A stretch of DNA of 4,295 nt from a virus. Lineage: Duplodnaviria; Heunggongvirae; Uroviricota; Caudoviricetes. The notes beneath the pieces are model-generated. The model searched no databases. It worked only from the letters and a program-made list of their open reading frames with translations, and was not told where the DNA came from. Position numbers and translations under genes: made by a program. Numbering within the stretch: the first letter of the stretch is position 1; each line of letters starts with the position of its first letter. The stretch lies in the IMG/VR virus record IMGVR_UViG_2706794688_000008. The stretch is one strand, 5' to 3'. Shown piece after piece: positions 26-4,295 of the stretch.

Positions 26-214
26 TTAAAAAAAGAACAAATGGTAGTGTCCGCTATTGCCAGTACACCTCAGGGTATAAGGGGTTATGGCCACCGGACT
101 ACCAAACGGCTGCCAGCCCTCTTTCAGTTTATGTGTCAGCTTTTCCGCAAGATCTGACGGCGGCGCCGCCCTGACAACATCATAGTGTTTAAATGCCATG
201 GTTCTTTCCACCAT
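26..214 (-). CDS. small phage protein, DUF1737-like (62 aa from ATG 214, or 57 aa from ATG 199)
   Basis: Complete minus-strand ORF with TAA stop at 26-28. The motif HYDVV...LKEGWQPFGSPV resembles the short DUF1737-type domain found alone or at the N-terminus of NanS-p esterases next to lysis genes in lambdoid phages (recalled, not searched). The second ATG at 199 has GGAAAG 5-6 nt upstream; the first ATG at 214 has no Shine-Dalgarno. Confidence 0.5.
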   Translation of the reverse strand: MVERTMAFKHYDVVRAAPPSDLAEKLTHKLKEGWQPFGSPVAITPYTLRCTGNSGHYHLFFF

Positions 215-392
215 CTGAAAAATAATTCTTTAAAATACCTGACATGTAATACAGAAAAAACACAAAACCATACCTTAAATAAAAACCTGATTATCAAGCA
301 GATATGCATGGATAAACTACAAGACGAGATATAAACCACCCTGCATTTAAATAAACAATAAACAACATCAGAAAAATAATTCTGCTCTATGG

Positions 393-421
393 TTTACATT
401 CAAAAATATCATTTATACTTT
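393..421 (+). promoter_or_regulatory. candidate sigma70 promoter for the plus-strand ORF at 460
   Basis: -35-like TTTACA at 393-398, then either TATACT at 414-419 (15-nt spacer) or TACTTT at 416-421 (17-nt spacer), in AT-rich DNA about 40 nt upstream of the ORF's RBS. Hexamer matching only. Confidence 0.3.
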
Positions 422-459
422 TCAGAACATCACCAGCAAGGCATAAACAAGGAAACTAA

Positions 460-795
460 ATGAAGTGGATTGTGATTGATACAGTTATCCAGCCATCATG
501 CGGAATATCTTTTTCAGTCATATGGAGTAAAATAAAATTAATAATCTGGTATCAATCGGATGCTTTCTTACCTCCTGAAAGTATATTTACACTGACTCAC
601 ACAGGCATCATGCTCAATAACAAAGTGCTACCTGTAACCATTTACAACGTAGTACCATTCAATAAAACATTCTGGAATTCAATCAAAAATAGCCAGGAAT
701 GCCCTACAAATACAGATAACGTATTGAATGAATGCTTTAATAACCGTTGCACTCTGCAAATATGTCCTTATGGACTAAAACAACAAAGTCCATAA
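460..795 (+). CDS. hypothetical protein (111 aa), AT-rich cargo ORF antisense to the phage late operon
   Basis: ATG at 460 is preceded by AAGGAA at 449-454 (5-nt spacer); TAA stop at 793-795. A 336-nt open frame in visibly AT-rich DNA. The C-terminus has four Cys (C-x10-C-x4-C-x4-C). 6 of 13 Ile codons are AUA. I recognise no homolog. Confidence 0.4.
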
Positions 796-816
796 GGAGT
801 TTACTCACATCTGACA

Positions 817-851
817 AAATCAATATAAACAGCCCCTCCGGAGAGGGGCTG
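817..851 (-). terminator. intrinsic terminator (hairpin plus U-rich tract) for minus-strand transcription
   Basis: Perfect 9-bp stem 830-838 / 843-851 (CAGCCCCTC / GAGGGGCTG) with 4-nt loop. On the minus strand it is followed by TTTATATTGATTTTG; on the plus strand there is no U tract after it. Confidence 0.6.
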
Positions 852-926
852 GAGAGTGGCGCTATGTGCCATTGCATGGTGCCGGGTGCCTCCCGGTGAA
901 TTCAGTACCAGCACCTGAATCCGCGA

Positions 927-1053
927 TTATCCCATATACCTACTCGCTGATTGCCCCTCCGCACAGGGGGATTCACCATGCCAGTTTCTTTTAACAAACT
1001 CCCCGCAAACCAGACAACAGTCAACCGCCTGAATTGTGAAGTATTTAAAAATT
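927..1053 (-). CDS. 3' end of an unresolved minus-strand ORF (start hidden in mask or at 1394/1397)
   Basis: Open frame from the mask edge to a TAA stop at 927-929 (tail ...CCLVCGEFVKRNWHGESPCAEGQSASRYMG), about 75 nt upstream of the minus-strand terminator at 830-851. Competes with the plus-strand ORF starting at 978. Confidence 0.25.
978..1053 (+). CDS. 5' end of an unresolved plus-strand ORF (MPVSFNKLPANQTTVNRLNCEVFKN...), continues into mask
   Basis: ATG at 978 is preceded by AGGGGGA at 965-971 (6-nt spacer), a strong Shine-Dalgarno. The frame is open to the mask edge. Mutually exclusive with the minus-strand model over the same bases. Confidence 0.3.
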
Positions 1054-1327: not shown

Positions 1328-1593
1328 TCCTGAACAAGAGCAAATAATTCTGAATTAGCAACCATGAACTCATCGCAAACCCTCTGTATAGCATCACTAT
1401 TCAGAATAATAACGTCTCTTCCCGAAAGACGATCAGGAGTACAGAACAAAACTGTCAAACGGCTGAAGGCCTTTGCTCGTGCTGCATTGACTATATCAAT
1501 ACGCTGCCTAAGGATGAAACACCCCGACGCCTCATCAATATTCACTCTACCCACACCATATGAATGATAAATATTTAATGCTGAAAAAACCAT
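1328..1593 (-). CDS. 5' part of a hypothetical minus-strand ORF running into mask 1
   Basis: Frame open across the whole visible block from ATG 1593 (in-frame stop at 1624-1626 upstream). No convincing Shine-Dalgarno. 5 of 8 visible Arg codons are AGA/AGG/CGA and 2 of 8 Ile codons are AUA. No recognisable family. Confidence 0.3.
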
Positions 1594-1960
1594 TAGACCG
1601 TATAACAAACACTCAATCAATACTTAACAGAACTTTTATTTTTGACAAACATAAAATATTTTCAACAATATCCTGAGCCAGGNNNNNNNNNNNNNNNNNN
1701 NNNNNNNNNNNNNNNNNNNNNNNNNNNNNNNNNNNNNNNNNNNNNNNNNNNNNNNNNNNNNNNNNNNNNNNNNNNNNNNNNNNNNNNNNNNNNNNNNNNN
1801 NNNNNNNNNNNNNNNNNNNNNNNNNNNNNNNNNNNNNNNNNNNNNNNNNNNNNNNNNNNNNNNNNNNNNNNNNNNNNNNNNNNNNNNNNNNNNNNNNNNN
1901 NNNNNNNNNNNNNNNNNNNNNNNNNNNNNNNNNNNNNNNNNNNNNNNNNNNNNNNNNNNN

Positions 1961-2240: not shown

Positions 2241-3348
2241 TCATCCGTTCTGGCTGACTAAATCCTGTACTTCCCGAACCGTCTGCTCAAAACGTTCAGT
2301 CTCCAGCTCAACGCCAATTGCACGACGCCCGAGCGCCAGTGCCGCTTTCACTGTCGAACCCAACCCCATGAAAAAATCTGCAATCAGGTCACCCGGACGA
2401 CTGCTAGCGCTGATTATCTGCTGCAGCATTTCTGCCGGTTTTTCGCACGGATGTTTCCCGGGATAGAACTGCACCGGTTTATGCGTCCACACATCGGTAT
2501 ACGGCACCTGCACCGTCACGCCAAAATACCGCCGCAGATGTTTATATTCACTCAGCAGCTCCGCATACTGCCGGTTCAGTGAGGTATACGTATCCACCAG
2601 CTGGTGGTGGAGCTTTTCCAGTTCACCACGCCGATGCTTCTCTTCTGCCACCCGGGCAAACAGCGCCTGTAATTTCAGATAATCGCTTTCATTCGGCAAC
2701 TGCCACTGACCGGCACTGAACCAGTGCGACACCATGTTTTTCTTTCCTGTGGCATCTGCAATCTGTTTTGCCGTTATCCCCAGGGCAGCTCGCGCATCAC
2801 GAAAGTAAGAAATCAGCGGGGCCATCACATGCTGTTTCAGTGCACTGCCCTTCGCCGCATACCCGGCATCTTTCGGACGATACGGCCCCTGATAATGTTC
2901 CGCGAACAGAATGCGCTCTGTGGCGGGGAAATACGCCCGCAGGCTTTCCTTGTTGCATCCGTTCCAGCGTCCGGACGGCTTCGCCCAGATAATATGGTTC
3001 AGCACACTGAAGCGTTCACGCATCATGATTTCGATATCAGATGCCAGGCGATGACCACAGAACAGGTAAAGACTTCCGGCAGGTTTCAGCNNNNNNNNNN
3101 NNNNNNNNNNNNNNNNNNNNNNNNNNNNNNNNNNNNNNNNNNNNNNNNNNNNNNNNNNNNNNNNNNNNNNNNNNNNNNNNNNNNNNNNNNNNNNNNNNNN
3201 NNNNNNNNNNNNNNNNNNNNNNNNNNNNNNNNNNNNNNNNNNNNNNNNNNNNNNNNNNNNNNNNNNNNNNNNNNNNNNNNNNNNNNNNNNNNNNNNNNNN
3301 NNNNNNNNNNNNNNNNNNNNNNNNNNNNNNNNNNNNNNNNNNNNNNNN
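2241..3348 (-). CDS. DNA methyltransferase, beta-class N6-adenine/N4-cytosine type (PF01555-like); N-terminus and start hidden in mask
   Basis: TGA stop at 2241-2243. Visible 283 aa begins LKPAGSLYLFCGH (the segment that follows the DPPY motif) and ends with an FxGxG-type SAM-binding motif (DFFMGLGSTVKAA); this C-terminal motif order is typical of beta-class enzymes. The DPPY motif itself must lie in the masked block. The six-frame start at TTG 3479 is rejected. Confidence 0.8.
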
Positions 3349-3876: not shown

Positions 3877-4295
3877 TTACCTAGTTACCTTTTTTAACTG
3901 CCGCTCAGCCCATGCTTCTTCAATATCAAACCGGGTCACCAGCGCATCATAAAATTTCTTAACTGTTTTTTCCCATGACGCGCGTGTTATCTGGTTTGTC
4001 ACCTCGCATATAGCATTAAATGCCTCCGTTGATGGTAGTCTTTCATAGCCACGACCACCACAACGCTGGCAGTCTCTGATAACAGGCATACCACGTTTTA
4101 CCGACTCTTCACGATGAATGGCGACACCACGCCCACGGCAATCCTTACAGGCGGTGGAAACCTCACCCTTTCCGCCACACTCCGGACAGGCAACTTTTAC
4201 CACCTCCCTGACTTTTTTCCATTCTTCCCAGTAAGACGGATACACACCTTTCGTACACTTTGCCCATACCGGCGGCTTACCATCCGGATACTGGA
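3877..4295 (-). CDS. Q: antitermination protein Q, lambda-type (5' end beyond window)
   Basis: TAA stop at 3877-3879. The frame is open upstream of the six-frame GTG start at 4245 to the window edge. The C-terminus (CQRCGGRGYERLP...WEKTVKKFYDALV...KKVTR) aligns by eye with the lambda Q C-terminus (CGRCKGVGYSRMP...WSRTVKPLYDALV...NAVTR), and it has CxxC zinc-finger motifs. PR' follows immediately. Confidence 0.85.
   Translation of the reverse strand, partial: QYPDGKPPVWAKCTKGVYPSYWEEWKKVREVVKVACPECGGKGEVSTACKDCRGRGVAIHREESVKRGMPVIRDCQRCGGRGYERLPSTEAFNAICEVTNQITRASWEKTVKKFYDALVTRFDIEEAWAERQLKKVTR

Follow-up and report, generated by a model that had tools for sequence, protein, structure and literature searches.

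The window, by which we mean the whole stretch of 4,295 nucleotides that was analyzed, is part of the late-regulatory region of a lambdoid prophage in which the minus strand is the late strand. Along this strand lie a Q-type antiterminator (3877–4245, running off the end of the window), a 65-aa ORF, a DNA methyltransferase gene, tRNA-Met(CAT) at 2125–2200, detected with ARAGORN, and a phage-borne tRNA-Arg(TCG) at 2041–2117. RefSeq relatives annotate the equivalent of the minus-strand gene at 2125–2200 as tRNA-Ile, with a lysidine-type reading of CAU. Parts of the window are masked by three runs of N (1054–1327, 1683–1983 and 3091–3348). Synteny with strain 300709 places a 43-aa DUF3927 gene under the first run and puts the last inside the methyltransferase gene. 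Between the tRNAs and DUF3927 there is also a partly masked late-strand ORF of 117 aa (1328–1620 (-); 4174–4527 (-) in locus L003), which matches phrog_2873, a family of unknown function, with E = 3.5e-70. No annotated feature was present under this match in the eight records listed, of the 1185 E. coli genomes with the segment. Further along the late strand come an STnc100-family prophage sRNA gene (821–1010 (-), Rfam RF02076) and, at 26–214 (-), a truncated DUF1737 ORF of 62 aa, which RefSeq relatives flag as a truncated pseudogene; in relatives the holin and lysozyme genes lie next to it, just outside the window. At the same position in Stx phages the DUF1737 gene is full length, at about 280 aa (843 nt).

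The gene of interest lies on the plus strand at 460–795, where an ORF of 111 codons plus stop begins with ATG. A Shine-Dalgarno sequence, AAGGAA, is present at 449–454, spaced 5 nt from the ATG, as the first-pass annotation had described. With 34.5% GC, the ORF is poorer in G and C than its flanks and the remaining window (about 50%). The length of the frame had been called unexpected for AT-rich DNA, which held in a weaker form: when the local 854 nt (200–1053) were shuffled, 3.75% of the shuffled sequences contained a frame open for 111 codons or more, so the length is only modestly unusual and on its own is weak evidence for a gene. Late-strand gene order (Q > methylase > tRNA > ... > holin) confirmed that the ORF is transcribed opposite to Q-driven late transcription, and the layout around it is the same in CFT073, E. 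coli 042 and strain 300709. In CFT073 the slot has the same occupants as in the window, namely Q, the tRNAs, DUF3927, STnc100, the gene on the opposite strand, the truncated DUF1737 gene and the holin, whereas the upstream module of Q and methylase differs. The gene therefore has what is looked for in a moron, as it sits in a slot between phage modules, with the Q/tRNA region on one side and the lysis genes on the other, has a GC content unlike that of its flanks and, according to the literature, has a promoter and is expressed in a lysogen.

Although no homolog had been recognized in the first-pass annotation, the protein proved to be IraL, a member of the IraM/IraL/RssC anti-adaptor family. 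It is identical to IraL of CFT073 at 110 of 111 residues (99.1%), the sole change being L74S, and is 58.6% identical to K-12 IraM. Across window positions 69–1053, DNA of the two loci differs by 6 nucleotides in 985 nt, of which 2 fall in the iraL coding sequence and another 2 upstream of it, within promoter and 5′ UTR. Hryckowian et al. defined the IraL subgroup by at least 95% coding-region identity to CFT073 iraL and at least 96% promoter identity, and the window gene (99.1% protein identity) falls within it. The iraL gene of CFT073 and Shigella shares its promoter, 5′ UTR and flanks with the window gene, and the S74 residue is the common Shigella allele, which corresponds to a “MULTISPECIES [Shigella]” protein named IraM and found as an exact match on at least 999 contigs. 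A prophage of Shigella, or of a Shigella-like host, is the probable source of the window. The RefSeq name of the ORF is “anti-adapter protein IraM”. NCBIfam model NF007393 (IraM) matched residues 1–110 over profile positions 1–113 of 114 with 162 bits, above its cut-off of 121; phmmer matched the protein to PDB entry 8twd (IraM) with E = 6e-31; and PHROG 4407 gave an end-to-end match with E = 3e-72. Taken with the CFT073 identity, these assignments identify the ORF as iraL, a paralog of iraM. The gene at 460–795 is therefore real but not new, being already known, named and experimentally characterized.

Comparison of iraL, K-12 iraM and the paralog of Stx2c phage 2851 gave dN/dS values of 0.10–0.15, with dS saturated or near saturation, and iraL is under purifying selection. 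A chance ORF at 460–795 was ruled out by these ratios, by the breadth of the family and by the published experiments. Of 5426 complete E. coli genomes, 2860 gave a match to the 671-nt stretch at 380–1050, and in 1441 it was covered to at least 80%. Disrupted iraL copies occur occasionally, for example through an IS1 insertion in one ST131 genome. The first-pass annotation had named a missing transcript, or a frame disrupted in related prophages, as findings that would count against a gene; because a transcript has been published and the frame is under purifying selection, neither applies, despite these occasional disruptions.

Upstream of the ORF, a sigma70-like promoter had been proposed, and its hexamers are present at 393–421 on the plus strand. 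They comprise a −35-like TTTACA (393–398) and a −10-like TATACT (414–419) with a 15-nt spacer, or alternatively a −10-like TACTTT (416–421) with a 17-nt spacer. In an alignment with the phage 2851 paralog, the upstream region of which is similar to that of iraL, a perfect TATAAT stands opposite TATACT (414–419). In CFT073, 5′ RACE showed that the iraL mRNA begins ACATCACCAGCAAGGCATAAACAAGGAAACCA (PMC4045071). The initial 30 nt of this product match window positions 427–456 exactly, and over the 32 nt published the sole difference is at 457 (T in the window, C in CFT073). This places the transcription start at A427, 7 nt after the first −10-like hexamer, and gives a 5′ UTR of 33 nt (427–459). 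Since the published start lies just downstream of the proposed promoter, the reading of the gene as a moron with its own promoter, directed against the late operon, is correct. A generic consensus scan did not flag the iraL promoter, reporting 2 promoter-like sites against 3.1 ± 1.8 in shuffles; the sites that it flagged instead (352–380 and 511–538) are no more than expected by chance. Support for the promoter comes from the published CFT073 5′ RACE and not from sequence statistics.

The function of IraL has been established in earlier work. As an RssB anti-adaptor, IraL keeps RpoS stable in log-phase cells (Hryckowian et al., 2014, mBio 5:e01043-14, PMC4045071). Deletion of iraL lowered log-phase sigma-S in CFT073 and in S. 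sonnei and shortened the sigma-S half-life from 5 to 2.5 min, while a native-promoter clone (−100 through the coding region) complemented the deletion and raised sigma-S in K-12 (PMC4045071). IraL co-purified with RssB and, by two-hybrid assay, bound the RssB N-terminal domain, and its effect was seen in log-phase LB cultures that were not limited for Mg (PMC4045071). The CFT073 5′ RACE, deletion and complementation, together with the S. sonnei deletion phenotype, bear out the earlier suggestion of a moron expressed from the prophage by its own promoter. Overall, the first-pass description was largely accurate, and its moron reading was right in outline.

The structure prediction and sensitive homology search that had been recommended for the 111-aa protein yielded the IraM family and the 8twd fold. 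An AF2 run with only 16 close homologs was too weak (pLDDT 58) and was superseded by one with 45 diverse sequences, which gave a model with pLDDT 82.9, showing a beta-barrel and one helix over residues 1–77. The top Foldseek match of this model was 8twd_A (TM 0.90, target-normalized; rmsd 1.2 Å over 78 columns), followed by the PmrD structures 2jso, 4hn7 and 2rqx (TM 0.70–0.73, target-normalized; 14–20% identity). The coding sequence (460–795 (+)) accordingly divides into a PmrD-like beta-barrel, RssB-binding domain (460–693; residues 1–78) and a tail (694–792; residues 79–111) that carries C81, C92, C97 and C102.

At the level of Pfam, the resources disagreed. When the window protein and 15 homologs were run through hmmscan with Pfam-A, PF11183, the PmrD family, was not matched at E ≤ 1, unlike in a precomputed Pfam table in which PF11183.15 is listed for every IraM-family homolog. 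The mismatch looks like a version or model discrepancy between the two resources. Pfam matches to Nairovirus_NSm (E = 0.056, sub-threshold) and STN1_2 (E = 0.1) were treated as noise.

Structure 8twd is a complex of IraM residues 1–78 with RssB, in which three clusters of IraM residues contact RssB; its crystallographers also reported the likeness of IraM to PmrD. All five residues of cluster I, which faces the RssB receiver or N-terminal domain (I4, I6, W22, K26 and I42), are identical in the window protein. Cluster II, facing the RssB C-terminal domain, is identical at 3 of 5 positions, with the conservative changes T13S and L75I, and cluster III, facing the RssB linker, at 2 of 4, with H63N and I64V. 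IraM binds both RssB domains, whereas IraL has been reported on the N-terminal domain only, and judged from the sequence the pattern at the interface seems to fit this reported N-domain-only interaction. The L74S substitution adjoins residue 75, which is an RssB-contacting position in IraM.

We are therefore highly confident that the ORF is iraL, a prophage iraM paralog with its own sigma70-type promoter, antisense to the late genes, the product of which binds RssB and stabilizes RpoS. For the window copy, binding and stabilization are attributed by analogy, from their demonstration with the 99%-identical CFT073 protein and from the S. sonnei deletion, and this copy would be expected to behave as the copies tested in S. 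sonnei and CFT073 do. In a lysogen, iraL would be transcribed from the start at 427, opposite to Q-dependent late transcription. Residues 1–78 of the product would fold as the PmrD-like beta-barrel and bind RssB, an adaptor of the response-regulator type, probably mainly through the RssB N-terminal domain. RssB sequestered by IraL would not hand RpoS (sigma-S) to ClpXP and, as RssB would be kept from delivering it, RpoS would be stabilized in exponential growth. The general stress response of the host (uropathogenic E. coli or Shigella) would then be pre-armed. On induction of the prophage, Q-antiterminated late transcription would presumably pass the STnc100 terminator and run antisense across iraL, opposing its expression. 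Because IraL raises RpoS while uropathogenic E. coli and Shigella are growing, a prophage gene rewires the master stress response of its host, as was published in 2014.

The same protein family could also house a different regulation. If the ORF were functionally IraM proper, it would be induced by PhoP/PhoQ and respond to Mg2+ starvation rather than acting as the constitutive log-phase IraL, and a PhoP-box-like direct repeat at 348–364 (-), TGTTTA-TTGTT-TATTTA, located at −79 to −63 from the iraL start, would suit such control. Scored against the consensus (T/G)GTTTA-N5-(T/G)GTTTA, it matches at 11 of 12 positions, and nowhere else in the window is the consensus matched with one mismatch or none (0.12 matches expected; at least one in 23 of 200 shuffles). 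Its position is kept in the diverged phage 2851 paralog, which has CGTTTA-TTCTT-TGTTTA at an equal offset although the sequence is different. Against this, shuffling of the 250-nt upstream region yielded an 11/12 match in 5% of cases, and the protein is 99.1% identical to IraL but 58.6% to IraM. No meaningful alignment of K-12 iraM upstream or downstream DNA to iraL was found, so no regulatory inference can be transferred from iraM, and IraL works in log phase in LB with no Mg limitation. A literature search for iraL and PhoP returned no relevant link. We consider IraM-type regulation quite unlikely and keep the repeat as a candidate site, a lead only; the IraL and PhoP-induced readings are compatible, since PhoP could act on top of the basal promoter. 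The typical moron position, the AT-rich composition (34.5% GC), the own promoter and the antisense orientation would also suit a gene that benefits the phage as a toxin, superinfection-exclusion or defence factor, and tests for phage exclusion or toxicity had been suggested for it earlier. This is very improbable, however: none of the 5027 PADLOC defence models gave a family at E ≤ 1, homologs are spread across Enterobacteriaceae, and the demonstrated target of the family is RssB, the contact residues for which are conserved, with RssB inhibition and RpoS stabilization as the known function. Nor is the protein at all likely to be a PmrD-type connector that protects another response regulator, such as PmrA, instead of acting on RssB. 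The Foldseek matches to PmrD (TM 0.70–0.73) and the precomputed PF11183 label speak for such a role, and both proteins are small, have an unusual beta-barrel plus helix fold and bind a response-regulator receiver domain. PmrD, however, targets PmrA, as a PhoP-induced connector that protects phospho-PmrA; it is 14–20% identical to IraL and has no Cys4 tail within the aligned ~80 aa, whereas IraL has one. Direct IraL-RssB interaction and an effect on RpoS have been demonstrated, and by Pfam sequence match the protein did not join the PmrD family, the relationship being at fold level only.

A further alternative concerns the hairpin downstream of the preferred gene, iraL, which the first-pass annotation had taken as part of the same self-contained unit. 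A strong hairpin is indeed there, with a perfect 9-bp stem (7 GC) at 830–851, 35 nt after the iraL stop, but it is terminator-like on the minus strand, where it is followed by the U-rich tract UUUAUAUUGAUUUU; the plus strand reads GGAGAGUGGCGC... and has no U-tract. STnc100 (RF02076) matched here with 132.4 bits against a gathering threshold of 47, over model positions 1–206 of 206; the terminal stem of the model corresponds to the hairpin. Published STnc_100 qPCR primers match exactly at 961–980 (-) and 888–907 (+). STnc100 has been reported ~75 nt downstream of stx2, and the hairpin segment is identical downstream of stx2cB in phage 2851. The hairpin is the intrinsic terminator of STnc100; given the position of this sRNA at 821–1010 (-), it is convergent with iraL, and its 3′ end is ~25 nt from the iraL stop codon. 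It is doubtful, if a real possibility, that the hairpin is instead the own terminator of iraL and not part of another gene. Its closeness to the stop, a stem that is symmetrical and strong in both orientations, and the frequent sharing of a bidirectional terminator by convergent genes favor this, but the U-tract on the minus strand only, the full-length STnc100 match and the conservation of hairpin and sRNA together downstream of stx2B in phages tell against it. No canonical plus-strand terminator for iraL was found, and the hairpin may also be where the convergent iraL transcript ends or is held up. Reassigning the hairpin from iraL to a known convergent sRNA is a small refinement. RefSeq relatives also carry, over STnc100, a partial plus-strand “hypothetical protein” pseudo-CDS at ~866–991, which is probably spurious.

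The Cys-rich tail had been described with the spacing C-x10-C-x4-C-x4-C, and this was confirmed as C81-x10-C92-x4-C97-x4-C102, with the family motif C-P-x9-C-x4-C-x4-C-P present. With a cut-off of E ≤ 0.001, an exhaustive profile search returned 97 proteins, including about 45 full-length relatives (105–125 aa) with identities down to ~20%; the relatives looked up came from Salmonella, Citrobacter, Enterobacter, Klebsiella, Cronobacter, Franconibacter and others. In 45-sequence alignments C81 and C97 were conserved in 45/45 sequences and C92 and C102 in 44/45, and these four cysteines rank, alongside W72, P12, W30 and P103, among the most conserved positions of the family. The four tail cysteines are thus essentially invariant from Escherichia to Cronobacter, in contrast to the poorly conserved, flexible tail of the structural paper. 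There, residues 79–107 of IraM were removed as proteolytically unstable, and the tail was called less conserved and flexible (8twd). In the papers checked on IraM biochemistry and structure, the word “zinc” was absent, “cysteine” was mentioned once, in a single paper, and no discussion of the Cys tail was found.

In our AF2 model the tail had pLDDT values of 50–68, and Foldseek aligned the N-terminal domain only; with such values no geometry of a metal site can be claimed. The most economical guess is a structural Zn(Cys)4 site in the tail of the cytoplasmic IraL. More broadly, the Cys4 tail may be a structural metal site or a redox element, which would affect stability rather than RssB binding. 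We hold it rather unlikely that the tail is a zinc or redox sensor that controls how stable or active the anti-adaptor is and thereby makes RpoS stabilization responsive to metal or oxidative status. If this were true, the sensing tail, the PhoP-like site and the convergent STnc100 or late transcript would make iraL a regulated switch and not a constitutive moron. The IraL protein is elevated in a CFT073 fur mutant. phmmer matches to the zinc-binding Kti11/Dph3 (E = 0.24–0.8) were dismissed, since they align to residues 9–47 and not to the Cys tail.

Compared with K-12 IraM (YcgW), which is PhoP/PhoQ-induced, the window protein has the same family, fold, start, Cys4 tail and ICPYGLK end and is 4 residues longer. 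The K-12 gene lies beside the e14 remnant, whereas iraL of the window lies in an intact lambdoid late region. A third sequence lineage is formed by the IraM-family paralog of Stx2a and Stx2c phages, which is 71–73% identical to IraL (72.7% for phage 2851). In phage 2851 this 107-aa paralog (5001–5324 (+) in locus L005) lies between stx2B/STnc100 and the DUF1737 esterase gene. Like iraL, it is oriented against the late operon, adjoins the STnc100 hairpin segment and has a similar promoter and the same position of the PhoP-like repeat; it follows directly after stx2AB, whereas iraL of the window follows DUF3927. Identity clusters within the family are graded (97, 88, 75, 70, 65 and 62%), and rather than falling into two discrete types the prophage alleles of the IraM family form a continuum, to which a mostly unannotated one beside stx2 belongs. 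The Stx2-phage paralog was seen in phage 2851 and in 41 other Stx2 phage records, in most of which it is unannotated.
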